Below, in pieces: positions 342 to 63,403 of a stretch of DNA of 64,000 bases. Source of the stretch: Botryllus schlosseri (taxonomy: Eukaryota); the NCBI GenBank assembly GCA_051294905.1, contig CM119372.1, positions 1,550,001 to 1,614,000 of the forward strand, read 5' to 3'. The notes under the pieces were generated by a model. The model was not told the origin of the DNA. It did no database searches and saw only the letters and a program-made list of their open reading frames with translations. The position numbers and the translations under genes were made by a program. How positions within the stretch are numbered: position 1 is the first letter of the stretch; every line of letters begins with the position of its first letter.

Positions 342-3300
342 ATTCATGTCCAACGTTGAACATACTGCTGTAGAGTAAATGAAGGATTGAAAAACCATCA
401 GGTTTGATACGCAGAACATATACATGAAAATGAGTATGAAAAGCACCCAAACTTCCTTGATTGGTCGCTCTTGTGGGGCCTCTGAAAGAGAGTTGCAGAA
501 CAGGAACATTTTCAGATTTTCCAGACTAGATAAGAATTAGAATTGAAATTGCTGAATTCGCAAAAACTAGAAAATTGATATAAATACCGAATTAAAAGAT
601 GTACAGCATTATACAAGTTCAGCTCATATCAAATCAAAGTTCATTATCATAAGCATTAGAATGGAAACTGTCTGTATATCAGGTTTGGATCGTTCCGCAC
701 TAAACAGTTCTCCTGCTGTAGCATTTTTGGGAAAAGAAGACATTCAAATAGAATTGAAATGAGAGCATTGATGTATTTCACTAGATTGGAACTAGATTAC
801 CGGCAATTCGCGCTAATTATTCTCATAAGATTGCTAGAATTATATCTATGTGTTCAAGTGTAATGTCATGGAACCGGAACCGGAACCGGAACCCAAAGGC
901 TATAACGCGGGCGTCAAACATACGGCGCACGAAGCAATTTCGAGTGGATTGATTCAGCACATTTCAAAGAAACGTTAAGATTTTTACTAAGAAATACTTC
1001 AATTAAATAATCCCTCAAGATAGCAGATGTCGCGTATATTCAGGGATCACATTATAACCACCAGACTGCGGAGTTGCGGTTTATAGTCACCATTAGGAAC
1101 AAGTCGCTGACATCGACACCCAATTACGAGAACGCAATAAATTGCATATTGACATCAGGGTTCTATGACAAATTGATAAAAAAATCGTGTAATTGACATA
1201 AGCGAAAACGCCAATCCGAAACCCTTATATGCAAGTTACATAGAGAATAAACTGAAATATACGTGGTCGCACTAATGCTTCCCTTCTGATTCGCCCGAAT
1301 CACAATATAATATCAATGAACATGAAGATAATTCCAACGTTCGTGTTGCAGCTGAAACTCTTTCATTTCTTAAAACGCATACGCAGGTTAGACGCCATTA
1401 TACGACTAAAACAAAGAAAGCATAGAAATATGCCAAGTTATATCGTCGTTGGAGTCACTGTTGTCTCGGTTTATAACTGTTTTTTAGCCGCCCAATCATC
1501 GCATTATTGCCAATTTCATTGTTTTCGAATAAAGGTTGCCAGAATTAAACTCCTATGACATGTAATATGTAATATAATCAGGGTTGCCATCGACATGGAC
1601 CCAAAAATAAGGACAGTCAAAATTTAGATTGGCATGAAAAAGCGTTTTTGTACATACGTTGTATTTATTCGAGCCGTGGCATATCACATTCCATACTTTT
1701 CGCCAGAAACAATCCAGCAACACCTTGTTATTAGAAAGTGCTTCATGGATCTCACGACAGCTTATAGGTCTAGGTTTACTTGAGCCGAAACAGCACTTCA
1801 CCCCCCCCCCCCTCCATAGGGTGATAAACCAACGTTCTTCACCTCGTTGTGATAAGAGGCGTCAACAAAGATGGAAAAATGCCGTACACCAAGTTTAGAC
1901 AAATTCATTTTTGGGCGCATGGAGCAAGAACCCCACTACAATGCTTGTACTCTTGGTCCTGGCCGGGGAAAACTTATTTGCGACGTTGGAGTCAGGGAAT
2001 ATTGTTTTGAACAATTGCGATGTGCAATTGTTGGTGAGGAATGATAGCTGGTGTTTGACAGTATGGAATGCCCCTTTACCCTCTGCAGCAGCTGCCTTGT
2101 AGTTTGTGGTCGTTGGTGCTGATCGACTTGTGGAAAAATTATTCACAGACTGTCTCAAATTAATCATTATGACACACTTCTTGTGTTTCGGGGTATCAAT
2201 GTGAGTTGAAATTGCGGTCTTTCCTATGGCCTCCAGGTTAATGTCACTATTGCCGATATTACAACGTGAGAAACCTTTCAAGTTTCGTAAGATACCTTTG
2301 AATTCTCTCTTACAATCGTCATGAAAAAAGTTTTTGCGTCTGCGCATTTTAACTAACCAGATTTGGCCTTATTAGTAGCTAAAACTATGTGCACAAGTGC
2401 AATATAATTTAGAAAATTTGTCAATGATTTATAGCTTTACTACTTTTTAACCAATTTGTCGACTGCACTGCGCCTTTTTTCACTGTGCAACAAATGCTGC
2501 CTTCGCCACAGCTCGAGCTTATTCTGATGTAGACCGACTGCGGCAGCTTGGTGCAGACGAAACTGCTATACCACCACTCACCAGGGTTGCCAACTACTGG
2601 AAGGCTCTCGGAGCCAAATATATTGTAAAATAGTGCCAAACTGACTGAAAAAGTGCCAAATTATCTCAATTGTTCGAAATGACCATATATTTAAAGAAAA
2701 ATGAGCTTCAACATTCCATTTAAGCTTAAATTAGGCTACAGAAGGAAGATCGTACACCTTGGCGGAATTTGTTTTGCACTGCGTATACAGGGTTGTCAAG
2801 TAAATTTAAATATGCAGAAGTCCACAATTCGGAAACAAAAGCGGCACGAAAACGAGCAGCACAAACTTTACAATGGATCAGCTCGCTTAGGCATCACGAA
2901 TTATAAATATGCCTTAACGATCTAATCTTAGCCAGTGTTCGTTCTTCAATGTTCATATGTACGTACAAGAAAGGGAGACCATGTCTGGTAGCCTAACTGC
3001 TGAATGATAGTTGGAATTACACACTGGATTTTTCCATGGAGAGCAGATAAAATGATCTTCGACCTATTTCCATGTACACCACGGCAGTTTTTAGCAGGCC
3101 ATGTGTAGTGTGTACTGTACGTATGGCAGTGCAAAATAACGATTTATAATAGGACGTATGACATGTATGTCCCTACTGAACTTATATATTTCTCTAATTA
3201 ACGTCAATTACTTCCTTGTGTGCACGAGCAAACAGCACTTTAATATAATGATATAATGAACTTTTACCAAATTTTGATTGTGGTAGTTGAAGAAAGTCGA

Positions 3301-6300
3301 AAGCCCCAAAATAGTGCCAACGTGCCAAACTCGAAGTTCCGGTGCCAACCCACGTCAAAATGAGCCAAAGTACAGAAATGCAACTCACTGCCCTAGCCCT
3401 CACCAGTTAGAAGTCAAATCTTCTGGTGTGTAAATCTTGAGAGTTCCTATCATTTTTGATGTCATAAAATCTCGACGTAAAAGCATAATTTTAGAATATT
3501 ATGCAACACTACCAGAGAAAAACGATCGAAGTTCTTCAGCGTTTTAAAATAAGACAAAATAAGGACGCAAGTCGAAAATAAGGACATATCTTAGAAATAA
3601 GGACAGTTGAATTTTCTAAGACGTGACCCTTCAAAATAAGGACAAATCTTAAAAATAAGGACGGTATGGCAACGCTGAATATAATACTATCGTGTATGCT
3701 TGATAATAAAGTATTCAAATGAAAAAGAAGGACGTTGATTTTGAGGTAATATTTTGGAATCATTCGACTGGTGCGGTCCGCGAGCTATCTGAAGGTTTGA
3801 GTCCGGCCCGCGACGTCATTTGAGTTTGACGCCCGTGTTCTACATCAATATTGGCAAATCGCCAATTGTTACATTTCGATGAAATTCCGATACCATAATG
3901 TGAAATGAGCGTCATACCTATCTCATTCCTTTTATCGTGGAAAATCTTCTTTTCAATGCCACATAATAGAAGGACGACGAAGATTATTGCTACCAATGTC
4001 ACGTACGAGCCAATCGCCACAAAGCACCAAATCACGGGGTTGAACGTATCGGCTTCTGTAATCATGAAATATCATCAAACGCGACCAATTGTATACGAGT
4101 TTTGTGCGCTCATCTTTTATACTTGTTGCAGATGGAACGATACACACGATATTCTCGCTAAATTAATGAGATAGTCAGTAACCAACTGCTGTACGACGTT
4201 TCCGGAGTAATCGAGTAGTTACTGGCTACTTGCAGAAGGGCTACTTCCCCAACTGCTTATGTTTTCATATGAAATGTGCTAGTACTTTTTTCGTTAAATG
4301 ACAAAATTTCTACACTAAATTTTCAAAAGTACAAAATAGTTTTGAGACAGGTTTGCATAATTTTCAGTTGGAGAATTGTTATAAAAACGCATGAAATATC
4401 TTTCCAATGATTGCATCAGTTTGTAGTGCACTTAGCCATTTTTGTCAATAGCGAAAAAGATCTTCTAGTTCCAAAATTACACTTCCACTTCTTTCGAACA
4501 ACTGCAAAAAGTATTCGGCCTATCTATCGAATCTACTTCGTGATGCTCTACTTCCTTCAGTACTACGGTTTTACTTCCGCTTGAGTATTTTTACCAATCC
4601 GCAAACTAGCATTACACCTATTCAAGATCGGTTGCCAGGATGCCCAACATACGAGCATGCGACACAAATGAAAAACGACAGTTGAGCATGGGACACTTCA
4701 GCAGGGCACTTCATAACCCTAATACTAACCCTAACCCGAGACATAGCCCTGGAATTAACCCCCATATATATACTTACCCCAAGCCTTACCCTAACCCAAA
4801 CCGAAATCCAACCCTAACCCACCCCTAACCCGTAATTTAACCCACATGCTCATGCGTCACATGCCCAATTGTCGCATGCCGAAGTGTCGCGTGCTATAAT
4901 ATCGCATGCTCATATTTCCGTGGACCGCTTCCCACTCTTTGAAGCTGCAGGATTTCAGTCTCTCCGGGAAGTTGCCTTTGGTGGATTTGGAAGATTTTCT
5001 CCCCTTCTGATACCTTCCCGTCATTTTGTTAACGATGGAAGTGTCTTTGCCGTTACTCTAGCCTTGGATAACCCTGTCAGTTTCCAGCGTTCTCACGCAT
5101 GTTGCGGCTACTTCGAGAACGTCGTCAAGGGATGGATAGGTTTGTGTTAGACAATGCCGTCTCACATCCGCGCGCGGCGTTTCGTCAATGATGAGATCAA
5201 GCATTGGCTCGTCAACATAGCTCTGATCACAGCCTTCTCTTGAACGCGTGAAGTGCAATCTTTGGAGATTCCGCGTAGAGTAGCAATCCAATCGGCATAC
5301 GACTGTCCTGGTTTCATTTTGTAATTGTAAAATTATTACCTGGCTGCTTTTACATGAATGGAGTCCTTGAAGTGTGTAGACAGCTTCTCAGTCAACACGT
5401 CGAAGGATTGCACACTGACATCAGCAGCACCAAACAAATTACGTAGGGGCGAGTACGTTTCAGGTCCAACCGATGAGAGTAGACACGCTCTTCTTTTCTC
5501 CATGCAGGAAATGCCGTAAATTGCTAGGTGGTGGCTGAATCGTTGCAGATATTGGTCACGTTTCTACATTGATTTTATGAACGAATCAAACTTGGGAGCG
5601 GTAGCTTCAGATGTTGACACACCGGACTGACCCTCTGCGTTAATTGCGCCATTTCTTCTTTGTGCTGAGCATTTTGCTGCTTCATATCTTATTTATGCTG
5701 TGCCATCTTTTCTTTGAGCTGTGTGCGTTGTCCCGCCATCATTTCCTGCTGCTTCTCGAGAAGCAGCATACGTGACTCCATGATGTATGTCAGTCGCAGA
5801 AATAACTATGAATCCGACTTCTGACACCAAATGTTGTGCTCTTGATTTTTTTTGAACAATAACTCGTACGACGAGGTTGCAATATCAACTCCAGCAGAAT
5901 AACTTCGAGGCAGCGACACGATCCAGAGTGCAGATTAACAAAAGACCAGTAGACAACAGAACACAGGGTATAAATACGAAGCACGACACACGAGAAAATA
6001 ATGATTGGCGGTAATTACTAATCCTAGACAAATAAGAACCAAACGATACCAACGTAAAATGGACGAACATAACACAACCCTCGCGAATTCTTCATCTACC
6101 GCAATTCTGTAATCTGACCTCCTCATATATTGCATAGGAATAACAATTTGACTGTGTTACTGAAATTTAAAAAAATTACTCCAATCTCGCTATTTTCCTT
6201 TGGGGACAGGTTGCTCGCCGGATTATGTTTGTATTTACCAGTTTTACTGTGAATAAAGAATATAATAATAATATTTCGTAGAGATTTACGGCTACTTTGA

Positions 6301-9300: not shown

Positions 9301-11675
9301 GGAGTTACAGGTAGAGTTAAATCCGTTTTGAACATATCTTTGTCCAACATTTCTCAGTGCTGCATCTCACCACCATAGAAGTACCCGAACATGATTCCAC
9401 CGACGGCTTGGACAATTCCAAGCAGTGCCCTTGAGTGAAGGAATGGCGTGACAGTCAGCAGAGCGCCTAGTGCCAGCGAAGTAAAAGCTGAAATAATTAA
9501 TTCAAAATCAACGACGTGCTTATCCGGTCCTCATTAGATAATTCTAGTTGTCGGATTAAACTAATTAGAACTTAATGTCGGTAGTCCAATTCTAATCTAA
9601 TTTTTGAGATGTTTCTGTGATCCCATATTAATCTAATCTAATTTCTGGTTTTCCTGGGAATGCTACAGGAGAACGGTATAGTGCCAAACGTGCCAAGCTT
9701 GGTCTTAATTCAGTAAATCTACTTTTAATCTAAATTGTAAACGCTGAAAAGTTTCCAGTTGTCCGACCCTGCTCATAATCTGTCTCTCACACAAACTCCA
9801 TAGGTGATGTGACCTCTTCATAGAGGACGAGAGGGCGCTGAAAATGATTGCTCCAACAAATACTCCGACAGATCGTACTACGAGTACTACAGACACTTGG
9901 TCGATTCTTGAATCCGTGTTTACTGCCAGGAATTGCAGCGTTGGTCCGGTAATCGATATGAAAAGCCCCTGTGAAGACATCCCTTATAATTTCTTCTGCA
10001 GTACTCTTGGTGAAAAGAGTATACATTCACCAGAGGTGGTGAAAGTAAACAAAAAAGCTACCCAAGTAGAAGTGGAAGTAGCGACGCACAAATCTACTCA
10101 AGTGCGAGTATAAATTTTAAAAGCAACTTCAAGCTACTTAAGGTAGAACTAGAAATGACTGACTTTAAATGTTCTCAAATATGTAAGTAGTTTTGAAAAC
10201 AATCTCAGTTCGTTCTTATGGACTGTCAAAAGCTGCAAATTGAGCTATGCGGAAGGTACAGAGAGCGTGATTCGTATTGATGCAACACAGGAGGTGTACA
10301 TTCTCGACAGAAGAAGCATTCTTTCGCATCATGTGAGACAAATTATAGTAGTGATATGAAAATGCGATACTAACCCTTTGTTTACTCGAAGACCCCGTTT
10401 TAGGGAATATCATGACATGGCGCCATACCCCGTTATAAGGCCCAGAGCCTAAACGAAGAGCAATACTAAGAAATTGTATCGGATACAGTTTCAATACTTT
10501 GCACGATTAGTATTCCTTAATAACAAACGTTGTGTATCGTAAAATTGCCATTTAGTGCGGCTTTATTTTCGGAAAACAGAAGCATTAGCCTACTGCACTT
10601 GCTCTTATACTTCAATATGCCTATGTTGTGCAGACAAAAGAACTGAAAGTAAATAGAACTCAACGTATGATACTTGGAATTGAAAGGGAAATACAAATAC
10701 TACTTCTAAAAAGTGGAAAATATACTTCATGTCTTTTGTCCATAAATCTTCAAAGGTGGTCTGCTAAAATAGGTGTAACGTTAAAAAAGCCGGATTCTCC
10801 AGATTAGTAGGAGACGTCATGGACTGCTAGATCACGATATCGTAAGTAATTGCTAGATTGCGAAACGGTCATATTTACCATGATGAAATATTTGATATGG
10901 ACCACAATGCGGTGTGAGTGAAACCACGCAATCCGGTACGTTAATTATAGTCACTGGTACTTTCGTGAAAACACAATTGTCACTCCATAACTACTGTGCG
11001 CGAAACGCAGCATAGGTTCTGGTCTTTTCTTGACTTCTATGAATATTAAATGTTGGAACTCCGTGAAAGCAGCCCCGAAATTTGATCGTCATCATTCCTT
11101 GGGACGGAAATACTCATGACTTTGGGCAACAACATTACTCATCTCTAGCTATAATACATATGCAAACGTGCACTACAATAGCATGATTTCTCTATAAAGA
11201 CCTAAATTATCTAACTACCGCTTTCAGCCTATTGGTGTATCTCGACTTTCAATACTTTCCTTAGCAATGAAAAGCATACATAATCAGCTTCTGCAGTGTA
11301 TTCTACTTTGATGCGCTCTGTATTATTGTGCGGCAGCTTCATGCACCGTAGATTCATAGGTCGAATATAGGTGTATTTATCAGATTTCCACGATAACGCG
11401 GAGACTGAAACAGGTAAACTGAAGTTTCCTGTACCAAATCATCTGTGCCGGGTATGGGCGGGTTTTATGCTTATCGACTATTATAAGAAGCACACACATC
11501 AACAGTGCAACACAATCACGACCACGAGCAAGTCCAGGTCTGAAGATTTGGGTTATTGCGACTCTCCAACCATTCGAATTCGTAATACTCACATAACAGC
11601 TCATGGCGAGCGATGATACCGTTACGAATAGCACGACCCAAACAAGGGTTTTCTGGTCTCGCCTTTCACGGTGAC
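342..11675 (-). CDS. MFSD4: MFSD4/NaGLT1-like MFS transporter, paralog A (partial; exon 1 not located, 3' exons beyond the window start)
   Basis: GT-AG exons on the - strand: 11675-11593, 9968-9791, 9487-9371, 6875-6768, 6440-6342, 4055-3918, 481-342. They splice in frame (WVVLFVTVSSLAMSCY/GLFISITGPTLQFLAVNT.../GIEAMYLKHWSEATARPFVQ...VGAFLAPII/AKPFL.../NPVIWCF.../YMFCVSNLMVFQSFIYS). The GPTL, G-x-LAP and KPFL motifs are typical of the family, and intron phases match paralogs B-D. The symbol denotes the family, not 1:1 orthology. Confidence 0.88.
489..860. mobile_element. CTAAT/AATTAG-rich MITE, copy 1 (gene A intron 7, abutting the acceptor)
   Basis: Starts AGAGTTGCAGAAC..ATTTTCAG..TTCCAGA and has AATTAG repeats. 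It is similar to copies at 9535, 23244, 37348 and 62027. Confidence 0.72.
869..892 (+). repeat. (GGAACC)4 microsatellite
   Basis: Read directly from the sequence. Confidence 0.9.
906..3837. mobile_element. Older hAT/Charlie-like MITE apparently enclosing the 1579-3677 element
   Basis: The ends CGCGGGCGTCAAAC...GTTTGACGCCCGTG are inverted repeats, and the right part (3690-3837) matches 19050-19185. No TSD was recognisable. Confidence 0.5.
1579..3677 (-). mobile_element. Defective hAT transposon with an N-terminal transposase relic
   Basis: TIR CAGGGTTGCCAT...ATGGCAACGCTG, subterminal AAATAAGGAC repeats and TSD AATATAAT (1571-1578, 3678-3685). ORF 2347-1895 contains AAEG..FHTVKH.LSF...FPDS.VA.KFS.ARTK. 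Confidence 0.88.
4629..4927. mobile_element. Small MITE-like element with central degenerate (CCCTAA)n repeats
   Basis: CGGT...ACCG ends and inverted subterminal GAGCATGCGACAC / GTCGCATGC motifs flank AACCCT-type repeats. Confidence 0.6.
4930..6074 (-). mobile_element. Truncated Gypsy-like LTR retrotransposon: 5' LTR (6074-5832), tRNA-Leu PBS (5829-5811), degenerate gag
   Basis: The LTR runs TGTT...AACA and is followed after 2 nt by TGGTGTCAGAAGTCGGATT. The broken gag reads DQYLQRF...RACLLSSVGPETY..LRNL...KPGQSYADW..TLR. Confidence 0.8.
9535..9771. mobile_element. CTAAT-rich MITE, copy 2 (gene A intron 3)
   Basis: AGATAATTCTAG...TTTCCTG..AATGCTACAGGAGAAC...CCAAGCTTG...GTTGTCCGACCCTG is shared with copy 4. 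The left TIR is deleted. Confidence 0.72.
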
Positions 11676-22196: not shown

Positions 22197-23243
22197 TACG
22201 TCCTTTCCTATCTTTTCATGGTCTTCGGCTTTTTAATTGGAATTTTGGTACTTGCGTAATGCGTATGCTGTTTATTTGTATGTATAGTAACATGTCTCAA
22301 ATCATGTGTCCAGGTTTTACCACGTCATCAGTAACGGTGAATACCTTCCGCTCTAGGAATACAAGGATGGTATTTAAGCAAGTGCGGAGAAACACGATCC
22401 AGATCGTTCATTCAACTACATCAATTCTCGTTAAGTGTGGGGACATTTCTTGCGCCACTCATTGGTGAGATCATGGAAAGCTAGTCTTGTTTACTTTTGC
22501 CATAAAATGCACATAATGTACACACCAATTCTATTTGTTATGGGTTATATATGTATTATAATTTCTTTTGCAGCCAAACCGTTTTTGGAAATGGAAAGTC
22601 AGAACAATCGAAACTTGAGTACGCTTACACCGGACACTGCGATCGAACATTCGCAGCACTCTGGTACGTTACGCGCGCAAATCCACCCCGAATGAAATAG
22701 AAAGCATAGGAATAATTCGAGGCTCATCCGACACTCCCCTGCAATTAACGTCAGTTGCAGTACTGAACCATAAATCCGGGTTTACCAAGATACAGCATTT
22801 CGGCCCCTCACTGTAAAGAAGAGGTAAGGAGCAGCTCCATTTTACAGTGAAAATTATGAGTCAAAATGAACGTCACAATATAGTCGTGACTGCACATGTT
22901 TCGCATCTATATTCTTAGACTAGTAGCACATCTATGGCCCAGAGTTCATTGACACTATCAATTATCACTCTAAGAGTGAGACTGTTCCACTATTGAATGT
23001 TTACGTTCGATAGTTCCACATTTCATATTTACGCAATAGTATACTTGATATATTTCTTGATACCGAATGAAAGCGATTGTATTTGCAGTCTATTTTGACC
23101 CGGTCAGCTGGTCCTACATCACGATCGGTGCTATCGCTACATTTGTGTCCACAATTTTCTGCATCGTTGCCACGTTCAAAATAGAAAATATGGTCGCGGA
23201 AACAGCGGACATGAAAATCGGTAAGAAAAAAGGCTATGCAACA

Positions 23244-23600
23244 GAGAGTTGAAAAACTAGAAATTTTTCAGCTTTTCCAGATTAGATTGGATTACAATTA
23301 GAATTATGGCTGCATATTTTTTTTAATTGGATTAGAATTAGAATTATTGAATTCGATATAAACTTGAAAATTGGATAAAATTCAAATTAGAAGGAAGTAT
23401 AAAAATCACGTGCATCTCATTACAAATCAGCTTGTACAACAAGCTTGTCTCGTTTCGAATGATACAGCCCGCCCGTCGAATCTTCAGGAAAGGCAGAAAT
23501 TATATAGAATTCAAATGGGAGTCATTTCACAAATTAGATTAGAGTTAATTGCATTTCGCTCTATTTAGACGTACAGAACTTTCTAGTTGTCGCAAGTCTG
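23244..23600. mobile_element. CTAAT-rich MITE, copy 3 (gene B intron 7)
   Basis: GAGAGTTG...GTTGTCGCAAGTCTG is flanked by ATGCAACA / ATGTAACA (8-bp TSD, 1 mismatch), which implies hAT-type mobilisation. Confidence 0.78.
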
Positions 23601-26072
23601 ATGTAACAGAATAATTGGCCTACATAACACATGCAAATTATCTGTTTCTCCAGGTGAGAAATCGGAACAGCCACTGCGGGAAGTTTGGATTTTTATCATG
23701 CTAGTCGTGATGTACATGTTCTGCTGTGTTTCTGGCTTGATTATATACCAGTCATTCATCTACTCTGTCGCCGTGTCTTCCGCTTTGAAAATGAACGTAA
23801 GTTGTTCAAAAAAGCTCGCGCTGCATATTTAGAAGACCTTCTTGTGTAGTTTACGCGAGTTTCATTGTCTTTTATGACGTCACATTTCCCTCCGGCTAGC
23901 CTGTTAAAAGTGCATCAGGGCTAGCAGAATCGGAATCCGGCATTGACGAATGAAGTTTTGGTGTAACGCAAATGATATCACTAACAATCATGCATGTATT
24001 GCTAGGCAGCTATATAATCTGCCTTTAAACTGAGAAATTTAGTGGTTTGGTGAAGCCTACCGCAGGTTGGGAAATCGTTCATTTGAAACCCTCAACCTTT
24101 TTTATAATTGTGGTTCATTCACAGGAAGGCAAAGCGGCAATACTTAATTCTCTCTATTATGCTGGATACGGGGTTGGATGTGGCTCAGCAATACTTGTGT
24201 CTAGATTTGTTAAACCGTCGAAAATCATAATCGTGGATCTCATCGGGTCCTGCTCTGTATCGGTAAGTATGAGCCTGTATTCTCTGGATAAGAACCGACC
24301 TCGACAACCGTTTTTACTAATGTCTTGGATGTTGATTATAGTTATTCCATTTAATATGTTGCATGGCATGTTTATGACTTAAGGTTTAGCGTAATAGTAC
24401 TGAAGCACTAATGTGAAAAAAGGTTGGAAGCGATTAGGATGAATTTTTTATTTATTTATTACATGGCCAAGAAGATAGAAAATGGGGCTAAAATGTCAGA
24501 TGGTGGATGCTGCTGCTAGCAAGTATTGTACAAGGGCTTCTCATATTTAGGCAAGGATAAAACGGGACGTCCATTCCATAATATGTACATTTACCCAGTA
24601 TAGTAACGTAATGAGTCTGATGCAACCCCTCTTCAAGCACGGCTACAATGTTACCTGCGATAACTTTTATTTACGTCTCTGGAATGCTACTGTGTGCACT
24701 TGGCGAAGAAAATAAAGGCCTAGCTGAACCTATTGGCAAAAGTTGCAAGAAGCTTCTCTAGGCCGCGAAGTAAAAACAGCAGCTTCATGTAGCCACACTT
24801 TTCAAGATTATCACCTCGTTCATAAGCGTAACCGCGATGCACCAGTGCAGAAATCGAAGTCTGTACTGACACATATATCGAGCACACTTCAACCGGACGT
24901 AACTGTTTCCTTCAGAAACAAAACAAACAGGAAACCAGAGACGGGTATATTTCATTACAAAACCAAAGCAGGAAGATATTGTTGATTGTAAGATAGTATT
25001 CCATAAGGGTATACCAACAAGTCGATGATGGTGCGTGCATTTTTTTTTAATGTGATGGATCTTGCATTGGCCAAAATGCCGATGCTGTAAAATATACAGA
25101 TCGAGAATTACTCGCAAGATCGCAATACGAAACTCTCAGCTGATGAGCTTTGCGATATGTCAGCAAGATCTAATAATGGTGATGGGGCTAACGCGGATCT
25201 CGAACCTACCCCAAAATCTCAAAGAACATGCTCAAATACCAATTGCGCACCAGAACGACCCTGATCTGTCGCACCAATAGCGATCTGCGATAAGTGTTGC
25301 AAAAAAGTGTGTTTAGAATATTGCACGTAACAGTGTCAGCAATAAACAACGATTTCTGTAGAGCGTCGATCTTTGTGTTGATTTTTAGCCTCCTTGAATG
25401 CAATGAATCGGACAAAATACAACATGCGTCGAAAAGTCACTTGGTAATTCTAGTGTTAATAAGTATTTTCGTTTAGATAATCATGAACGTGTGGGGAGAA
25501 CATTCCGAACCAGTCATGTGGTTTGTAACCTTCGCGATAGGCTTCTTTGGTGCAACATTGCTTCCTAGCGGTGAGGCTCTACACTAATTCTTAAATTCAT
25601 TCATGTACTACTTTTCATTTGCATGCTTCGGTGGTAATTACTTGAATATGGCACAAAAACCTTTTCTATTCAATCAGTTCATGCTACTCAATCTCGTTAG
25701 TACTGATGATTTGGAGTGCTTTCATCTAACGATCGCATGACGCTACGACATGTGCACTGGCATAAATTGAAATTTAATCAAGCACAACGAAAACGAGTGT
25801 AGCTGATTGCGAGGTGAAGGTCGCCGATCTGTGATTTAAAACTACTTTTGTTGCGACAATAAAAATGCTATATCTCTCTAAACTCAATACCGTGTATTGC
25901 TGAAAGTAGCTGTACGACGGATTTGCAGGAATATCATGGTGCAACGAAGTGACAAACATGTCCGGGAAATATATTTTCGTTTATGTTGTTGTTGTTGTTA
26001 GTATTTTAAATATGGTGTTCGGCTACTATGGCCTTTTACACCAGGTCTCAAGAGTCTGATAATCCATTAGGG

Positions 26073-31335: not shown

Positions 31336-31370
31336 ACGTCCTTCCTCGACGACGTTCACCACTCGAATGA
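31336..31370 (-). promoter_or_regulatory. Internal Pol II promoter of the LINE: Inr (TCATTC) + DPE (GGACGT at +28 to +33)
   Basis: The - strand reads TCATTCGAGTGGTGAACGTCGTCGAGGAAGGACGT. With A+1 at 31368, GGACGT falls exactly at +28..+33. Confidence 0.7.
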
Positions 31371-31932
31371 TTTTCGTTTATAACACGGGCGCAGCTATCG
31401 GCGCATCAGTGCTGGTCCCACTAGCAGGTTTTCTTTACCAGGAAAATCCGTTTTCAGCGGTGAGTGAACTTAAGTTGCTGTACAATACGATACTTATCTG
31501 AAACGGGTAATGCTAATATATAGGTAGGGATGGTGTGAACGTGAGGTTCATGTTCGCGTTCGGTCCGTGAACCTCGGGAATTTAGAGGTTCACGTTCACA
31601 AACGAACATTGGTAGGTCGACATTTATTGCATTTCGACTGCGAGCCACTCTATGCATGGCGCTGGCAGCATAAAAAATCAACACTAAACGAACATGCACC
31701 TGACAATCGCAAAAATTATAGATGCTTTGTTGCAAAAGTTTGCTAGATATATCCAGCTTTCCGTTTGTGAATATTTAGCGACTCTCTGCTGTGAGCTTGA
31801 TCACACAACATCAAGAGCGAAATACACTACATGTAGGTAGTCAGCGAATGATGTTTATTCCACCAATCAATGAAATTGATATCGTTCTCTGATGTAAAAA
31901 AATCTATCAGGCGTACGGGGTCAATCTCGATT

Positions 31933-33300: not shown

Positions 33301-35934
33301 GGTGGCATATCACGAAAGGCGAGATCGATAAGTCAGGTCGTGATCCGGTAATCTTGATGACGGACTGTAGTATTTCATATGTTTATTGTATCATAAAAAC
33401 TAAAGCCGTGCGATTGAGGAGTTGGCTACTGCTGTATAACTTATTAATGGGGAAATATCGGCAGCAAGTAAAGAAATCCGTTTTACACTCTGCTCAATAT
33501 TAACGTAGCAATACGCTGACGCCGAATATATTGTCCGGTCTGACCTATATAGACTGTGAAGACATAAGCTTTTACTCCCTTGCATGTCCTCGTCGAAAGA
33601 TATTGGTTTTATGGGATTATTATATCATTTGATTGCCTCAGTTGATACATTTGGCGATGTTTAAAACGTCAATATGTACTTCAGCATCGTGGCATTATGT
33701 GGCCCTAGCTGTCGCTAGGTATCGTGTACGGTAGTTTAATATATAGTCAATCACTTCACTGAAATGTAGGGTTGCAATTAGCAATATGAAGTCACGTGAC
33801 GTCATTAGGTTCACAATACCATCCCTGCTAATAGGGACCAGTAGTTTTACTTATATTTTATGTGGAATAACGCTATCATGTCGAATACAAACTGTGACAC
33901 ATCAAATTTGTAAAATAATTTCTCAACTTCATCAGATGTATCTCGTGACTGGAGCCAACATTGCGACCGTCGTGTTTTTCGCTCTGATGAATGTATTCAG
34001 ACGTTACGCGCGAAAGAAACGCGGAGAAACTCCTTCCTGAGAGTTCGGAACACGCGACTGTGTGTAAAAGCCAAGTTCGAAATGGAGCGTATTCGAGTGT
34101 CGTTGATCATTTCGTAGAGTGTGAAGTTGATATTTTATCACATATAAAAACTGGGCCTATCCCGCAACTGCTGCGTATACTCTGCGAAATAGGCAGACTT
34201 ATTTCGTCATTGATATAATCACAGTCTCTCACATGTGACAACAATAGGATCAAAAGGCAACTGGTCTTCCATTGCATGTCCCCTCATAGAAGTTCGTAAG
34301 TTTGTTTTTGGTTTGGCTGTAGACCTATTTGGATTCAGCGAGGGATATGTAGAGTTCAAGATATTCCTGGATTCAGCGATCCGTTCTAAACATTTTGTAT
34401 TGTTTAGTATCGTATCATTCGTATGTATGCTTCTACGATTATGAGAGCGCAGGTAGTGGAGTTATCTCACGGGTTCATCTTAAGTTGACAGTCGTCCATA
34501 GTCGAGGTACTGTCTTCCAAGAGCGAACACCTAACTGCACGAAGGAGTACATTCCCAGATTTACCGCGTAAGCCCCTTCGGCATATACACCTAGTCACCT
34601 ATAGCTATGTCAGTGGTTCTCAAAGTATGAGGCGTTCGAATAACACGAATACACACCAATAGGCTGGTATGCATTCGATGTTCTCCTACTGCAAATATCG
34701 TCCCCTTGGTAACACTATACGTCGATTGGCAGTAACGACTAACGAATCAGCTTATATGACCTCCATTGTTGTTTTCAACGAATAGCGGTACTACCAACCA
34801 TAGGGAGCCAACTGGATTATTTTGGAAAAACCCAAACGCGAACAAAACCTCGCGTCACTTTAGAAATATAACAGAACGACAAACGGAATGCTGCGCATTG
34901 TATTTTCGGATAACTTCAATCGAGAGAAATTTAATTATTGTCCATATTTCTTTCTCAAATGACTGCCTTGCGAAGTTGATACGAGTACCAACTATATGGA
35001 CAGCTGTCGTTACAGCAGCACTAGCGCAACTATGGCGGTGCCAAATGACGCGCTCTCCCCGATCTTTAAAACCGCGTGAGGCTATTTTCATAGGCAACGT
35101 CACTGACAATCTGTGAAAAGTCAAACCCGCAATTTTCGTAGCAGATTACCGGAGTGCAATGAAAGGATATTTACTGTTGTCTAAATATGTTGCAATTAAT
35201 AATAGCCGGTAGGAAAATGAACTGCAGGCTGACATCAGCACAAAATCCACTGCTTTTGCGTAACTTAAATGTACTGTCGTGAGCACGAAACATTGCTCTT
35301 ATGCAGTTTATTAATTCGGCTTTAATGAACAAATACCTTCAGTGCAAGAAACAGATAGTGGTAGACAGTTTCCAATCAATACAGCCCAAGCCAGTATTAC
35401 GACGAATGAACAAAAAAGAGCAATCCTAATCACTAAGAAACTGAATCAGCCCCAAATTAACACCAAATATACAACATATACACATAATATGGCAATAAGG
35501 TCCGTCATGGAACAAGTTCGGCCTCATATATCATGGAACCAACACCAGGATTCTTTCTTGGGCGTGTATCCGTCAGCGAATTATGAAGGTTGGTAGGCCT
35601 ATATACCGAACACGACCCATTCCTATATTATAAACGCGTCTACTGTAAAATAATGCTAGTTGACGAACCTAGTTTTATTGCAATAACGATACAAATACAC
35701 GTTTTATCCATTAATGACCACTGACCACGCTCGTACACGCTTCGAAGCGGATTTATGAGAAGTCGCGCTTTATCAAATGCATTGGCCTACAAACAATGCA
35801 CAGCTTATATCAAACAGTGATGTTTGTAATGCTAACACGCATTATACACAATTGCAGTTACGTTGAATCAAGTCTGCTGCCGTATACTGTTGTGTGTGTC
35901 GGTAAGAACGAACGATAACGTTTATAGTCCGGAC

Positions 35935-36247: not shown

Positions 36248-39200
36248 ATGGATGAAAAGAAAGAGACCGTAGAAGGTTATTTATTCGATAATCCATTTCA
36301 ATTCCATTAAGCCCGAATGCATGGCAAAAAATTACCACAGGTCACGATAATTGCCGTTCGCTATATTCTCTGACCAATTTAAACCGCAAGAGGTTGGATA
36401 TTCAGTTATTATTGATCCCTAATGGAGTTATCATAGCTATGGGCAGTATGTCTTGACCCTATTCATCATCGCACCCCTTTGCATGGAAACACCAACCATT
36501 TGACGCCACCCCTTCTCTACCACATCATAGAAGTAGCATAGTTGCAATCGTACACATAATGGGTGAAGCCAGCATGACAGTTGAGAGTCACATAGATTTC
36601 AACAATAACATCAGGACATGGATCCCCAATGACGTCACAATTCCTGGCCTAGTCCTTTGCCAGTTCCAGCACCTTAAAAAGACAGCATTATGACTTGAGT
36701 TCTTGAATCGCAAAGAAAGTAAATGAATACAACTTAGTAATTTCACTGTGTAAGATATAGCCTATACTTCGCGTATATATCGGCACCTATACTATATTTT
36801 CAGGGTCATATGGATCATCCATAGATATGGCGGAAGTCAAGAAACGAAAGGGATGGGTGGTAGCACTGGTTGCATCAATTACGCTAGCGAGGATAAGTAA
36901 TGTGAGCCTCACACACTGGGCCTATATGCCATATATGATGCAATGTTATGATTGGTCAGGTCATGTCATGCTATCTATTCATGAAAATCCGACCAACTAG
37001 CCCGAACCAGAAGCTAATTCCTGAATCGATACATTAAGCGCGTATTTATCCACCTATACAAGGATTAATCGTATTTAATGTTAATTTTAAGTTTGAATCA
37101 TAGAAACCAAAACAGTATTCAATGAATTTATTGATGAAATCATTCCAGGAAACTCTCTGCGGGCCGATCAAAATAACGTCGTGGGCCGTATGTTGCCCGT
37201 CCCCACCCTTATGTAAACTCAATTATAAGATGAACTATGCAGTTTAGCAAAGTCGGTTGACAATAGATGCCTATCGACATCAACACTCAACAGCTATATG
37301 GAGCATTTACACTATTTCGCTTACCCGCAGTGTTCTTATCATCGCAGCAGACTTGGACAACCAGATAATTCTAGCTATTAAATCAGACTAATTAAAGCGA
37401 AATGATGACAATCCAATTCTATAATCCAATTTTGTTGATTGTTTTTATGCTCAAATTCCAGTTCTAATCTGATTTATATACTTTTCCTGAAAATGCTACA
37501 GAAGAACTGTATTGTGCGCAAGGAGCCAAGCTTGTTGTACATGCACTTGTACAAGTAGCCTACAGGCATGTGCTATTCTCGTGCTCATGAGAATAACTCC
37601 GATTTAATATGAGATGAACTTAATGAATTTCCAAGTTCTCGCGTGTTTACTAACCTTACTCCAATTCTAATCTAACTCGGAAAAACTGTGTTGCTCCAAT
37701 TCTAATTTTAATCTAATTTGGAACAGCTGAAAATTTTCAACCTGTCCAACTCTTCACAGGGCCTGTTCCTCTCAATTACTGGCCCCACTCTCTTGTTTCT
37801 GGCCGAAAACACAGACTCAAGCGTGTCGCAAGTGTCAAGCATGTTCAGTGGAAGGTCTGTTGGCATGTTAACTGGAGCGATATGTTTTGGAGCGGTTAGC
37901 AATCGCTTTCCAGACTACAAGCCGCTATTCACTTTGGGTAAGAATTCCTTGGACTCCTCAGATGTGCCTGATTTAAGCATCCGCGCACTTACGAACGTTG
38001 TGCATAGCTTATAAGTTTTGAAAACGTTGCCGTATACATTCAAGGTATCGGACTTGGAATACACGGAATTGTAATGATACTCACGCCATTTATGACATCA
38101 CTGGCGGGCCTTGTGACTATAACGATGGTCGGTGGTTTAATGTTCGGATACATCAACTCAGGTTTGATTGTGATTGTGATTACAGTGCATGCTATCTTGT
38201 TTTAAGGCAGAGGTCTCAAACACGCAGCCCGCGGACCGCGAGAACATTTTGTGCGGCCCGCGAAGGCATTTGGGAATTTCAAGTATTCGACAATATATTC
38301 CAGTGCCACATATCTTTTTCAGATATAAGAACTTGAAGTTCCACCTAAAACTGCTATAAAAACACTGAAATCTCAACAAACTACACTATCGCGTCACTTT
38401 TAAAAGCTACCATGCGGTAGAAGATCAGCTATTACGTCACATTTCTCGTTCATGATGATAAAACATGACCCGTTGATGATTCGTGACTGAAAATATTGTG
38501 ATTTGTTTTTTTGCGATCTTTGGTAAAATTACTCGATTTCAGATTGACTGGGTGGTTAAATAAAAAGGACTCGAGTTAAGTCGAGTCAAACGTTAAAATC
38601 GGAGAAGGACTTGCGACGCGGAACGGTGACTTGGCAATCCTACGGACGTAACAATCTATGAAACTGTGGCGGGGAATAGTAATATATCAAAAGGTGGTAG
38701 CTTGCGTTGCGTAGGGTATATATTGCTATCTAATCAGGTCAGTAGTGCAACCATTGGCAATATGTGACCCCCGTGATGTAAAGTAGGTTACATGCTAGGT
38801 GTTGTCTGATCTCTTTATCCATGTTATGATCGGTGGCGAGTAAGGTAGTAGTACGCTCAACAGCTGTAACACCAATGAATTCATGGGTGATTGGACATTT
38901 ATACTCTTAACCATGGTCCGTAGACCCCTTTGGGGTACGGAGCACCACACCGTGGGGTACGAGATGCATTGTGGAACTAGGCCTATATGCTGGGGAATAT
39001 TTTCTTGACCAATTTACTCAACTGGAAAATGGTCTTCGCGCTACGCGCGATTTTACGTGCATGGGCTTTCTAATTTTAATATAGGTGCAGTCAGAAATTG
39101 TGTTGAAAATGAACAGGGGCTACGAGAAATCTTATTGGAAGCACGAGGGGTACGATCGCTAAGGTTAAGAAACAATGCTATTACTATGGCTCAATAATGA

Positions 39201-50871: not shown

Positions 50872-53800
50872 CAAATACCATATTATTGTACTGATGCACT
50901 ACGACTATAGTATACCACGCAGTGATATTTCCTCAGGGTGAATTTATTGTAGCGTGTGAATCAAGCTATCAATCAATCAATAAATAAAAGAAAATATAAA
51001 TGACTGCTGCGTTGTTACACTACTCCAAGTCATTTCGACACTTTCCCATATCTTTTCATTGCATCGCAATCTTGAGGCGCTTTAAAATGATGAAATTATA
51101 ATAAAATGAACCGGGGGAAAAATTTCGGGTTTCGCAGTACATAAGCCGGATATAGTTCCTAGGAGATATATCATGGATCTGCGTGTAGGGTTGGGACTTC
51201 GGGAACAAATTTGAAATCCCGGGATCGGGATTTCCCGGGATTTGCGCTTCTCAATCCCGGGATTAGTAAAGTAGTAAAATACACATACAAGCTACACACA
51301 CAACATATATTACTTGTAGTGTTGACGAAAAAACATGCTCCCGTGAATACGAATGAAATCCAGCGACCGAAGGCCACCCGGATAATGAGTGTTTAAATTC
51401 ATGTACCGCCTGTTTCGTGTAGAAAATGATTCGTCAAATGTGATCGAAAAACATCCAATGCTGCGTTTCATTGCCATAAGCTTTCTTCCGCACACTTACG
51501 GATTTATTTGCTGTGCTCGACCACCAAGTCATGAGCCCGTATGCGACATCTTGACAAGTCACAGCCATAAGCCTTGAAGGCCCGACGAATTTGCTCACTT
51601 TGGGTAATTGAAGAAATGTTGACCCGTTCACAGCAGTTAACTTGTTAAGAAATTCATCGAGGAGAGGCTTATGAGTAGTGTTATCATCTGGGTTATAGAC
51701 CGCCCCTCAGGCTATTTAGAATGTAAACACTCTCATAATATAAGTAACCTCGGACTATGGCCGGTCCATGCTTCCGAGAAATAAATAACATTAATTATAC
51801 GTTAGATGATACTTTCCTTAGATATTCTATTATGTGTATTTAGGACCAATATTCTAATATGTGTATTTGGGACTAATGCGACTACTTCGAAAACGCGTAC
51901 TGAGCAGTTTTTGGGAATATGAATTCTGGCTTATTCTTATGTGAATTTAGAACTTTGTATTTTCGCGGATCAATAATAAATTAATGTTCATTTATTTCGA
52001 AAAAAGAGCATAATACATCAGTAATAGCGTTAACGTCACAATCGAATAATACTCATCAACGTTGAACTATTGCCGCGGTTTTATGTTGATTACGCTTTTC
52101 GTATCTTCTAACACTTTACTCAGTCTCATAGAAATAGCATTGTATAGTGTACGATTTTATTTCGAAAAAAGAGCATATCAATGATATCGTTGATCGTTAT
52201 TGCGTTATTACGCGCGGGAATGTTTTTTTATGCTTATACAACTCAACGAATACCCATCGGCCTGCTTACTACATTTTAAAGATTCTCTCCGCTATTGTGT
52301 ATACAAGAATATACTTCTCTTAGTAAGCAATTTCTCGTGAATTCCGAAGCACATTGACGTGTGTTAACTTCTGTATTAGGTTATAATATCATTTTCATGT
52401 CTGATAATGTTACTTGTCAAGGTGATACAAACGTAAGCTCAAACTACTTTAAAATTTAAAGTCTTACTGAATTTTATCTAAAACTGAAACTGTCAAGTAC
52501 CGATAAAGCACTCTAAACTCTAGTCACTTTTTACGTGGAGGGAGTACATAGCGAAGTACTTGTACACTTTGGAGTACTCAAGTATAGGTTTGGCCTGATT
52601 GCGCTATACTGAATGAAGTGATTAACTATTTACACTGCATCTACTTCTATTTCAGAGTTTTACGGTTTTCGAGCGAACAATACCTTCAATACATACTTTT
52701 TAACTCGCTCGGAAATCATCACTTCTTGTACTTTACTAGAAATTTACTGCTACTAAATGTTGAAATGTACTGTTTTCAGTGGTCCTGATGAGTGCTGCTA
52801 GTTTCCTCTATATCCGACGACGCATTTTCGCGCCGCAGAATGACTTATCGCAATAAAAATAACAAAAATACTTCGAGAATTTGCGAACTCTCACTGCGCA
52901 ATATTTAAGTTTTACGAAGTACCCTTCAAAGTGACCCTACATCTTGGATATTATCCAAAACCCCATAAAATTTCGCTTCGAGCGAGGAATCCTTTAAAAT
53001 AAGGTAGAAGCAGTCATTTCCGAGTAAGTAAAACGTTAGTACTCTAGGTCTATTTCTGTTTTATACTGTAGCTATCATGAAGTTGATGTACTCCAATAAG
53101 GACTTGAGAGTATTTGGTGCATGTAGGCAAAAAACCTACTTGGGTATTCTCAAGAAGTACGTGTACTTCTATACTTAACAACTCTGAATGTTAGCGCGGT
53201 TTGTGGCATTTGTATGCGATCAAAGTTTGCGTGCTTCTCGCGTACCTTATGATAGTAGTTTTCCTCTTCTATCTACTTTACAAGATTCAGTGTAGAAGTT
53301 TAGTGAAAGTGTAAGAGTTTAGCAAAAGCAGTTTTTGATGATAGCACTTGTCAAAGTGATACAAACGTAACCTCAAGCTACTTTAAAATATAAAGTCCTA
53401 AAAACCGCTAAGTATAGAAGTGTAAATAATCTACAAACATAACCACCTATATTAGTTACTTTTTAATCCCTAATTGTACTTGTATTCCAGCAAAATTACG
53501 AATCGTTGAGTATCGAGCGATAGCCTGTATCATACTTGCGGAAAATAGGGATTAAGTACTCGAGTGTCAAATTAGAGTAAATTGAGTAAACTTTAGAGGT
53601 TATTAGTGATTCTGCTGGAGTTTATATGAAGGGAAGTCCTGATAAAACCTTGATTATTTCAGAAAAGAATAGAGGGCTTCTGTCGATATTTTGATAGTCT
53701 CCGTCGTACTGTCGGATGTCATGAAATTGTATACATACCATCTAGTGCTACGCGAAATTTCCAGGTTGGTACTCAATGGTTCTGTTAGTAACTATATGGA

Positions 53801-59170: not shown

Positions 59171-61142
59171 AGATGATCGCAGCGTCGGATGGCAGCAAAG
59201 CGGTGTACCTCGAAACATCAACCGATCTGGAGGATTTCAGCACGCGAATCGACGCAATAACGATCAACGATATCATTGATATGCTCTTTTTTCGAAATAA
59301 AATCGTACACTATACAATGCTATTTCTATGAGACTGAGTAAAGTGTTAGAAGATACGAAAAGCGTAATCAACATAAAACCGCGGCAATAGTTCAACGTTG
59401 ATGAGTATTATTCGATTGTGACGTTAACGCTATTACTGATGTATTATGCTCTTTTTTCGAAATAAATGAACATTAATTTATTATTGATCCGCGAAAATAC
59501 AAAGTTCTAAATTCACATAAGAATAAGCCAGAATTCATATTCCCAAAAACTGCTCAGTACGCGTTTTCGAAGTAGTCGCATTAGTCCCAAATACACATAT
59601 TAGAATATTGGTCCTAAATACACATAATAGAATATCTAAGGAAAGTATCATCTAACGTATAATTAATGTTATTTATTTCTCGGAAGCATGGACCGGCCAT
59701 AGTCCGAGGTTACTTATATTATGAGAGTGTTTACATTCTAAATAGCCTGAGGGGCGGTCTATAACCCAGATGATAACACTACTCTTATGCGATTTATTTT
59801 ATAGGAATCGATCTTCCTCATCTTTATTTTTAGCTGATCTTTCTTTGACGTGTCCGATTGAATCATGCATGATTTCATTACTATCATTTGTACGGACCTT
59901 AAATGCGTTATTAGTCCCTTTGTGCTAGACACTGAAGCTTTCAAAACGTCTTGACAAAAGTTGCATTTGGCTTTTTAGGTAGATTTTAAAAACAAACAGT
60001 TTCGCTAAACATGAGTTTTCTCTTTGCATTGACATCTTCGAAATTCGCCATTATTCGACCTCTATTTCACCCCCACAGCACCGTCCTAGAGACTTTTCGA
60101 TACTCAATTACATTGCTACGATTCGTAGACTACGACGAAAGTGATTGTGTAGTTCATTGTTATGCCATAGCTGGCTTTAATATCAAATAATTGTGAATTG
60201 TTTTAGACAATCAGCAGAGTTTGTGACATTGCTTTATTACCAAAATAAGAGATATGGCGCTACGTAAGCCTTGGAAAATGCTCTTTACAAATCCCGGGAT
60301 TTCATTGGGAGTAATCCCGGGATCGGGATTTCCCGGGGTCCCAACGCTATCTGCGTGCCGAGGCTCATATAACTGGATTTACAGTTGGTATGGAAGCAAT
60401 GGAATATAATATAGTTTTTCTTGTTTGATTAAAATGTCCCATTCCTGATTCCGTGCTATGAATAAAGCATCACAGAATATCGAAGATCGAGATTAAGAAT
60501 AACAGGATATAGAATAGAAGCGGGGTATCTCAATCATTAATTCAAACCGATATCTCATTTCTTAATTGCGAATCGATATGCGTTTTTCCTCAATTCATAC
60601 TATACACGACTGAACTATCATACTGATCCGACATTTCCGAATCCATATTAAGTGCGAAAAGATTACGGTATGGCGCGATGAAAACATCGTAATTTCGAAA
60701 CGTAGTGCACTTGTCGAGAACTATTGTATCGTCTTTTTTCGCGACCTTCTTTTCGCCAACATACAGTTGCACCGTAGAAAATGTTGCACTGTACCACACT
60801 ATACCAATTTGCTGCGTTTAACCTTTTAGAAAGGTACCACCAATGACTGTTTAGCTCTGCATGTGTGGTGCGGTTTTGTGAAACTGAGTAGCTCACTGGC
60901 TTGTAGAAGTTCTCCGTTTAGCCTTGCTACAAACATTAACATTTGTTTGCGTAAACCGGGCTCGTGAAACAGCTCTAGGTCACTCTGAGTGATCTACAGG
61001 CCTATATATAACTGATAGTTATATGTACCCTCGAGTAATGTTTGAATATATATCGTTTGATGTTACAGCCATTTGATAGCCAAATCATTGGAACAAAATA
61101 TTCTTATACATGAACGGGAGGAAATATAGTCTATAAGTGACG

Positions 61143-63403
61143 ATGGAAAATTCATCGAAGGATACGAAAGATAGCGGTTAGTTTGTTCAATTGCAACTTT
61201 ATTGCAAAATATGCACGCGTAGTGCGGAGATGCAGGTTCGTCGTAAACAGCGCTATACCACTTTGGGAAGTTAGGGATTTTAGTCTGTATCGAATAATAA
61301 AAATATTTTAGAATTACGGAATATAATTCTATCCAGCACCATCACATGTTTCGTGACTATCTCAGATCCTAAATACTCGGGAACAGCAAACCATTATTTC
61401 TTCGACTAAATCGTAACGATAACTCTACGAACTAACCAAGAGCCACCGCAACAGAATGGTGGTTATATACCAACAAATGATTTGATAGTGACTACACTGC
61501 TGTCATCTATAGCAAGAGTTAGCAGATTTTATGCAACCGAAATAGTAAAGGGATGCGTTCATATTCCATTACAATGATAATATTGCATCATGCATTTTCG
61601 CTTTTATAAAATATTTTCTAGAATTCCAAGACAGCGACATGAAGAAAAGTAAAACTTCAGGTTGGGTGGTGGCACTAGTTGCAACTATTTCATTGGCCAG
61701 AATAAGCCACGTAAGTTTCAACATTATTGAAGTCGATAAACTTTTATATGTTCCTAATGCTTGATCAAGAATCACATTGACATTGTTCGAATTATCGGGT
61801 CAATAAGCAATGATTGTATAGTGTGAATAGTTTGACACATTATATAACCGACAGCTATAGATAATATTTACTCAATCAACTCGATGCTGAACCTGTATGC
61901 AACCGCGTAGTTGGACGAAAGTAATAACCCGACCCTTTGTATAAGTGAACCTTTATGATGGACGCTGCATTGTGTGCGGCGTTTACAAATATGTCCCAAG
62001 ATCCAGCGCTTGAATTTAATTCACAGCAGTCTAGGGCCACTAGGTAATTCTAGCTGTCTAATTACAGTGGTTCCCAGCCTTTTTCGACTCATCGCCCCTA
62101 TATACAACTTGACATATATTTATCGCCTCCCATATTTTCGGATCGGAGATAGCGGATATATGAACGGAAAATGTATACAGCTAACTCTGGCCGCTGGTAA
62201 ATTGACTAAAAAGTCACAACAATGAAAGTCAGCATTCGCGGTCATCCCTGAAAATCCCGGTATTTGAAGATGTGTCGAGTTGACCTTTTTAGTCAACTTT
62301 CGCGGCAGTTCCATAATAACACGTTTTTCGTGTGTATATTATGTCTAGGGTTGCGTTTAAAACAAAAATCAATTTAAAACAAACATGTTTAAAACAAGGC
62401 CCTAATTTAAAAGATGTTTTTTATTTGTTTTTTTTATAGTCTTGACGTCACGAATATTCAATTGTGACGTCATAGTAAAATTGACATTAACAATTGAAAA
62501 TATAGGGTAAATATAGCTCCTTTGACGAAATACCTGTACTATTAATGCCGAACCGACATTTTTGAGGGTTCCAACCATCTCATATCGATATGCGTCGCCT
62601 ATATCGGGTATAGTAATTGTCCGTAGGCTCATACAACAAGTTTTTTGGAAAGTATTTACACAATTATGGCATAATTTTACAACTTAAAAAAAAAAACAAT
62701 TTTTTGAAGGCCTTTGTTTTAAACACTGTGTAAAACCTGTTTTAAACAAAGAGTTTTAAAACACCGTTTGTTTTAAATGCAACCCTAATTATGTTGGTGT
62801 CCGGTTGCCGGTTAGTTAAATAGATCTGACTGGACGTTCTAAGATTTTCAACTCCTGTCGCTCCTTCGTAAGTTTTCGCCATCCAATTGCCCACGTTGTT
62901 ATTTTCGCCCCTGTATTTCAAAATCGCAAACTGAGGAGGGATACCGCCCACGTTTGCAACCAGTGAATTAGCTTAAATAAAGCGAAATGACGGTAATCTA
63001 ATGACTCTAATTTGTGAACGATATCTATGTTCTGATTTGAATTCTAATCTAATTCCTGCTTTTCCTGACAATTGCTATTCTCATGCACTAATATATCTGA
63101 GTTCTGGCGAATTCAGTAATCCCAATTTTAATCTAATTCGGAATAAAACTGTAGCTATAATTCTAATTCTAATCGAATTTGAAAAAGATGAAAATGGCCT
63201 ATAGTTTTCCGAATCTACCTCGCAGGGCCTCTTTATTTCAATCACGGGACCGACTCTTCTTTTTCTGGCCGAAAACACAAACTCGGACGTGACTCAAGTG
63301 TCTGCGATGTTCAGCGGAAGGTCGGTCGGGTGCTTAGTGGGTGCTGCATGTTTTAGCGCGGTAGTAAATCGCTTCACCAAGTTCCAGCCGCTTTTGAGTC
63401 TGG
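61143..63403 (+). CDS. MFSD4: MFSD4/NaGLT1-like MFS transporter, paralog D (5' part only; closest to paralog C)
   Basis: Exons: 61143-61176 (MENSSKDTKDS), 61622-61710 (GWVVALVATISLARISH) and 63226-63403 (GLFISITGPTLLFLAENTNSDVTQVSAMFSGRSVG...). Exon 3 is 178 nt, as in A, B and C. Confidence 0.85.
62027..63217. mobile_element. CTAAT-rich MITE, copy 5 (gene D intron 2, at the acceptor), split by later insertions (about 62065-62965)
   Basis: The left end CAGTCTAGGGCCACTAGGTAATTCTAGC aligns with the left end of copy 4. The element resumes at AAAGCGAAATGA (about 62979) and is flanked by ATTCACAG / CCTCGCAG. Confidence 0.7.
62346..62787. mobile_element. hAT-like MITE with GTTTAAAAC repeats
   Basis: TAGGGTTGCGTTTAAAAC...GTTTTAAATGCAACCCTA with TSD ATTATGTC/ATTATGTT. 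Confidence 0.85.

Follow-up and report, generated by a model that had tools for sequence, protein, structure and literature searches.

Introners are described as elements that insert in exons and create introns whose ends match the ends of the element (10.1101/2022.06.06.494994, PMC12130899, PMC11282704), and the introner pipeline of Gozashti et al. was, by its own account, built to exclude most secondary insertions into existing introns (10.1101/2022.06.06.494994). The AGGT model places both splice sites inside an exon (PMC3443670). As regards landing spots, hobo, a hAT element, is reported to make 8-bp duplications at NTNNNNAN targets (PMC3276498), and in the account given for NF1 the same acceptor was hit twice independently by Alu (PMC3219598). 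Whether some transposons are made prone to splicing by their sequence and choice of target is a question raised in reviews (PMC3443670), and one for which the family described here offers a test.

The locus lies in a window of 64 kb, by which we mean the whole stretch of DNA that was analysed. The reading that we hold to be probable is that an old hAT-type MITE came by ordinary transposition to be flanked on both sides by the eight bases that end a pre-existing intron of gene C, and that this gene splices to the downstream copy. The event is likely an ordinary consequence of hAT target preference and of the tolerance of an intronic insertion, confirmed in part by RNA. It thus provides an RNA-supported example of a transposon that lengthens an intron from its very end, leaving the gene unbroken, with a measured reason for its landing spot.

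With the introners described as Micromonas IE1 and those of Chrysochromulina, the element shares a MITE-like structure with terminal repeats and a used AG in the duplicated target; it is unlike them in that it sits in an older intron with a native donor and brought no gain. The same phase-0 intron occurs in paralog A free of the element, gene B has its acceptor at the same codon, and the element starts 446 nt after the donor, so that its similarity does not reach both splice boundaries. It is therefore not an introner, and the class 'introner-like', proposed in the preliminary description, does not apply, since no intron was gained and one boundary only is involved. What is shared is the co-option of a splice site from the duplication: position 37759, in the downstream copy, is used in sequencing run X1, and the corresponding use in gene D is predicted. 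The origin of splice signals from a duplicated target is also a likeness to maize Ds, for which Giroux et al. reportedly described intron creation in 1994.

The 8-bp duplication, the palindromic target with its T in second and its A in seventh place and the CAG start are as described for hobo and other hAT elements (PMC3276498), whereas the AGGT model differs in that here just an existing acceptor was copied (PMC3443670). The Alu insertions at the 3' splice sites of NF1 are comparable in that the target of the enzyme fits the acceptor and pyrimidine tract, so the element lands there; unlike the present case, they are retrotransposons, reported with exon skipping and disease (PMC3219598), while here splicing is normal via the duplicated AG. 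In the literature covered, which takes in few subscription papers, we found no precedent for an acceptor copied by the target duplication of a transposon with a branch point, nor an ascidian case of a hAT MITE concerned in intron splicing.

Host intron and acceptor use

The window contains a cluster of paralogous multi-exon genes, A, B, C and D among them, of which C and D are the closest pair. They are named major-facilitator (MFS) transporters on account of weak Pfam MFS_1 matches in three of seven exons tested (two submitted out of frame), and they may resemble MFSD4/NaGLT1. Exon 3 of gene C (37760..37937, plus strand) matches MFS_1 at E 4e-05, under the curated cutoff, and a search of its protein among longer proteins gave no match at E 0.001 (59 candidates). 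The exon 3 of gene D is open and conserved, with 73% amino-acid identity to that of C; between the two, dN is 0.23 and dS 1.1, which indicates purifying selection. Rfam gave no matches across 36800-38100.

Intron 2 of gene C follows the coding exon 2 (36804..36901, plus strand) with a phase-0 GT donor at 36902 and is 858 nt long. After its native, element-free part (36902..37339, plus strand) stands the 8-mer CATCGCAG (37340..37347, plus strand), the original acceptor, apparently unused; then comes the element (37348..37754, plus strand; 407 nt), which has decayed terminal inverted repeats, subterminal repeats rich in CTAATT and no ORF of 70 aa. The working acceptor is the downstream 8-mer CTTCACAG (37752..37759, plus strand), identical to the element-free acceptor of the homologous exon in gene A (positions 9976-9969, minus strand), which serves as the empty-site reference. 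In gene D, the element (62027..63217, plus strand) lies between ATTCACAG (62019..62026, plus strand) and CCTCGCAG (63218..63225, plus strand), the latter being the acceptor of exon 3 as predicted by exon homology, and is split by a nested insertion at 62065-62965. These four 8-mers are thus present where the preliminary description had placed them.

One contig of run X1 (1173 nt, depth 27), which covers exon 2 at 36802-36901, joins 36901 to 37760 across GT..AG and skips the next intron, likewise GT..AG. Gene C therefore uses the downstream copy, as had been proposed, and the choice between 37347 and 37759 goes to the latter in the one informative run; this result comes from a single contig of presumed RNA status, and rare forms tend to be lost from contigs. 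In the raw RNA, runs X17 and X21 have zero reads on exons 3 and 4 and are uninformative for acceptor choice. Among the 15 joints listed of 25, none leads to 37348 or 37351, as a product of the upstream acceptor would, and X1 depth is zero in the element bin 37598-37658; the assembly of this run thus contains no isoform that retains the element. By its sequence, reading through from the upstream acceptor would meet a stop at codon 7, in C as in D. Transcripts with a premature stop are probably degraded, and so, in all likelihood, would be the product of this acceptor. The earlier suggestion that the upstream site could yield a non-productive isoform is thus borne out as to its coding consequence, while the isoform itself was not seen in the informative run.

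The strength of the two sites does not account for this choice. Scored on a matrix of 23 predicted native acceptors, the upstream site of C reaches 7.2 bits though unused, against 4.6 for the one in use, so the last 14 bases do not explain it. Gene D probably splices at 63225, its own downstream copy. The insertion is present in organism B as well, since a contig of run X11, labelled with that organism, spans 37052-37798 with nine differences and no gap. In the copy of gene C, a substitution made a CAG at 37724-37726, 33 nt upstream of the acceptor in use; as the frame is kept and no stop intervenes, this CAG is a possible minor acceptor.

Branch points lie at a usual distance from the acceptor. 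As the last 412 nt of intron 2 in C are the element plus the duplicated site, a branch point at that distance must fall in the element, and it is likely from this geometry that the branch point of C is inside it. The nearest CTAAT (37713..37717, plus strand) has its A at 37716, position -44, and is a candidate; a further one stands at -55, and in D the candidate is at -54. The element is indeed rich in CTAAT/CTAAC on the sense strand, as noted earlier, with seven CTAAY in C and eight in D against none and one on the antisense strand, the window having about two per kb per strand. In Ciona introns, CTAATT is reported as the commonest branch-like hexamer, yet at only 8.37% (PMC2483917). CTAAY occurs between -45 and -11 in 1 of 23 native acceptors of the cluster, equal to the 5% background. 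The motif homologous to the CTAAT at -44 is CGAAT in D and is also mutated in the copy in intron 7 of gene A, and we found no selection on the last 60 nt of the element, where C and D are 72% identical compared with 73-78% elsewhere.

With gene C splicing to the downstream copy, the 3' end of the element likely supplies both branch point and pyrimidine tract. Three features would have made the insertion tolerable: no part of the element leaves the intron; CTAATT repeats and pyrimidines are present at its end; and two AGs in the terminal repeat of the family would fall 12 and 21 nt ahead of the duplicated acceptor, both in frame. Gene D retains the terminal AG at 21 nt with an open frame, and these in-frame AGs may have eased fixation.

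The element family and its target preference

A profile of the element finds five copies within the window. Besides those in C and D, there is a truncated copy in intron 3 of gene A (9534..9771, plus strand; antisense to the gene), an independent copy in intron 7 of gene A (488..862, minus strand; sense to the gene) and one in intron 7 of gene B (23244..23600, minus strand; antisense to the gene). The five are 63-74% identical to one another and are therefore old, and all sit in introns common to element-free paralogs. The homologous intron 7 of genes A (482-3916) and B (23221-23653) carries the family at different places and in opposite orientation; intron 7 of gene C has 60 nt and is empty of it.

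The ends of the family were derived from two sources, namely the consensus of loose ends in the runs of this organism and relatives in metagenome contigs. In the runs, other copies leave the window sequence at 37738 with the consensus TAGTTGTCCAAGTCTG (21 X1 contigs), 34 reads of X17 give a near-identical consensus, and this sequence is the reverse complement of the 5' end of the element. Up to 48 alike contigs at a single position in X1 show that the family is repeated. A scan with the 5'-end motif gave at least 121 metagenome loci (L001-L121; about 430 stored stretches estimated), of which 113 match the profile; an earlier, longer 3'-end pattern had found no metagenome loci. From 124 ends of relatives, nine were untypable, and 91 unique ends and 12 full elements were retained. 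The relatives are a sister subfamily from another host, 500-670 nt long, in a clade of their own (support 100/98); this subfamily is younger, is abundant in the host DNA of the metagenome contigs and has 18-nt repeats, perfect or near-perfect, at both ends.

Relatives in public contigs fix the terminal repeat as CAGACTTGGACAACTAGA; in C, its arms of 22 nt (37349-37370 and 37732-37753) are 73% complementary. The element is a hAT-type MITE, assigned to this superfamily by its ends, duplication and target only: it has terminal inverted repeats, an 8-bp duplication and a palindromic nTnnnnAn target, and is short, non-coding and repeated.

The target preference was measured at 89 sites of the relatives, in a sister subfamily of another host chosen for its perfect terminal repeat. 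It is palindromic, (C/G)T-nnnn-A(C/G): of the 91 unique ends, 49 have T in the second place and 45 have A in the seventh, and each stands at 51% in the symmetrised matrix. On this matrix, CTTCACAG stands at the 99.6th percentile of the 8-mers of the window; within the final 302 nt of intron 2 of gene A it ranks first of 295 and takes 3.7% of the insertions expected there. The 25 native acceptor 8-mers have a mean target score of 2.8 versus 0.96 for the window. The copy in gene B fits the matrix poorly (28th percentile).

Among the targets of the relatives, 14 of 89 end in AG and 22 of 89 start with CT, both above the 5.4% background, and a sense bias is absent (p = 0.24). Since AG targets are enriched in both orientations, the sequence taste of the enzyme suffices and a targeting aware of splicing is unneeded. 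It is likely, then, that the preference of the family itself explains the landing at the acceptor. In the mechanism we propose, the palindromic preference would fit an acceptor ending in CAG, and an ordinary transposition would have copied the last eight bases of the existing intron.

Timing of the insertion and a second copy beside a predicted acceptor

The preliminary description placed the insertion before the duplication that separated C and D. One insertion at that stage is in our view the likelier history, held with some reserve. In its favour, the elements of the two closest paralogs share intron, offset and orientation, and the native part of intron 2 in C is weakly homologous to 61711-62018 of D (local alignment, z = 5.1 against 300 shuffles). 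Less favourable are the star-like tree of the five window copies, which has no clade of C and D, and the low divergence of the elements.

The competing history, in which C and D each received the element once the genes had duplicated, through two hits on the same preferred 8-mer or through gene conversion from one paralog to the other, is possible though doubtful. The tree speaks for it, as does the fact that the C and D copies are as like the independent copy in gene B (77-82% identity over the parts compared) as they are like each other (72-78%). Derived sites exclusive to a pair number 3 in 227 columns for C and D, 5 in 296 for C and the intron 7 copy of gene A, and 4 in 191 for D and the latter. 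Moreover, the elements of C and D are 74% identical (206/277) against differences at 18 of the 34 four-fold sites (Fisher p = 0.002), so that the elements have diverged less than the coding sequence around them at such sites; with CpG left aside the difference is 11 of 24 (p = 0.053). The acceptor 8-mer is a top-ranked target, and Alu is on record as having entered a single acceptor of NF1 more than once (PMC3219598).

However, a duplication soon after the insertion would also yield a star-like tree, and the four-fold sites number just 34. The upstream intron is homologous between C and D with an identity not significantly below that of the element (p = 0.09, by a method that saturates near that level). 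Together with the shared intron, offset and orientation, these points favour the single earlier insertion.

The copy in intron 7 of gene A ends 6 nt before the start of exon 8 at 481, an acceptor predicted from frame and homology, and forms its pyrimidine tract. Its flanking 8-mers mismatch (3/8 alike); it lacks both terminal AGs, neither of which would have been in frame at that place. Between the two antisense copies and the acceptors there are tens of bases. One could imagine from this that the family acts time and again as an 'acceptor swapper', or half an introner: the hAT preference would steer it to YAG acceptors, and sense copies would be kept at the 3' ends of introns for their ready-made branch point and tract, with the CTAATT end and in-frame spare AGs, having replaced 3' splice signals at least twice and perhaps three times (C, D and intron 7 of A). 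We consider this improbable.

What recommends it is that both independent sense insertions in the MFS genes of the window abut acceptors, at 0 nt for C/D and 6 nt for intron 7 of A, while the antisense copies do not. Furthermore, the terminal AG that would be out of frame was lost in intron 7 of A, whereas the in-frame one was kept in D and both antisense copies keep it, and CTAATT is the top branch-like hexamer reported for Ciona (PMC2483917). Yet there are two events only, one of them being the reason for the finding, and hits near an acceptor are likely in any case, since several introns measure about 55-110 nt without an element or after its subtraction. The 89 targets in the relatives have no sense bias, the last 60 nt are not more conserved than the rest, and the CTAAT closest to the acceptor is mutated in the copies of both gene D and intron 7 of A. 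As to the AGs, the one lost in intron 7 of A is also missing in three of seven unselected ends of relatives, and the other is missing in all five window copies, antisense ones included; a selective loss of this outer AG was accordingly ruled out.

A single locus does not show that the family turns over 3' splice signals, and ordinary transposition with a target preference that fits acceptors is still the reading we prefer. If the recurrent replacement of acceptors were true, an animal genome would offer an intermediate on the way to an introner; and were sense copies piled at acceptors genome-wide, old introns would be seen to have their 3' splice signals renewed by transposons, as a possible step towards introners.

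The duplication and the improbable introner event

That the flanking 8-mers are a target-site duplication, as the preliminary description held, agrees with the family duplication measured in the 12 full relatives. Their mean flank identity is 0.73 at 8 bp versus 0.12-0.32 at the other lengths from 2 to 12; the duplication is perfect in 4 of 12 and at 6/8 or better in 8 of 12, and two of the four poor cases (L052, L085) possibly have mis-paired ends. The copy in gene B has TGTTACAT/TGTTGCAT, 7/8 alike.

When the ends of the copies are set by the consensus, the 8-mers of D flank the element (62027-63217) exactly, although only 5 of 8 positions agree. In C, CATCGCAG adjoins the element at 37348, and only five bases, CACAG, remain between the consensus end at 37754 and the exon, so that the first 3 nt of the downstream 8-mer belong to the terminal repeat as well; the two 8-mers of C agree at 6/8. 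The missing 3 nt would be a single 3-nt deletion. The register expected of the flanks is thus exact in D and off by these bases in C.

Chance look-alikes without any target duplication are very unlikely. They would accord with the modest matches within each gene and with the shift in C, and the D pair alone is weak, 5/8 having a window frequency of 1.7%. But the family duplication is 8 bp, D is in register, and the matches across genes are close: the upstream 8-mer of D agrees with the acceptor of gene A at 7/8, and the upstream 8-mer of C with the downstream one of D at 7/8, where only 0.038% of window 8-mers are at least 7/8 like CTTCACAG and 0.02% at least 7/8 like CCTCGCAG. Judged by these cross matches at window frequencies of 0.02-0.04%, the duplication is real despite the modest matches within genes.

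Least probable of all is a true introner event, in which the whole intron, or a second one nested in it, would owe its origin to the element. An acceptor derived from a target duplication is an introner trait (10.1101/2022.06.06.494994) and D has a GT 17 nt inside the 5' end of the element, but 446 nt separate the donor from the element, gene A has this intron with no element in it, and neither C nor the aligned relatives have the GT of D; for gene C the event is ruled out by the joint of 36901 to 37760 together with the element-free paralog.

The GT gained in the D copy (62044-62045) is donor-like (AG/GTAATT) and stands just behind the old acceptor; a micro-exon of 17 or 14 nt, or a recursive site, is conceivable there. 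The nested insertion in the same copy starts with CAGTGGTTCCC and ends with GCAACCAGTG, has weak terminal repeats and holds another element with inverted arms of 35 nt (62346-62380 and 62753-62787). Elsewhere in the cluster, late exons of the transporter family occur at 31349-31462 and 33936-34007, 5-8 kb beyond the exon of gene B at 25925-25990, whose match to its counterpart in C is confined to the first part of the latter; a split exon or a further partial paralog is conceivable. Finally, 51667-52205 and 59252-59790 form an inverted pair of 539 nt with 99.6% identity, which by this likeness would be a very recent duplication or a young element.
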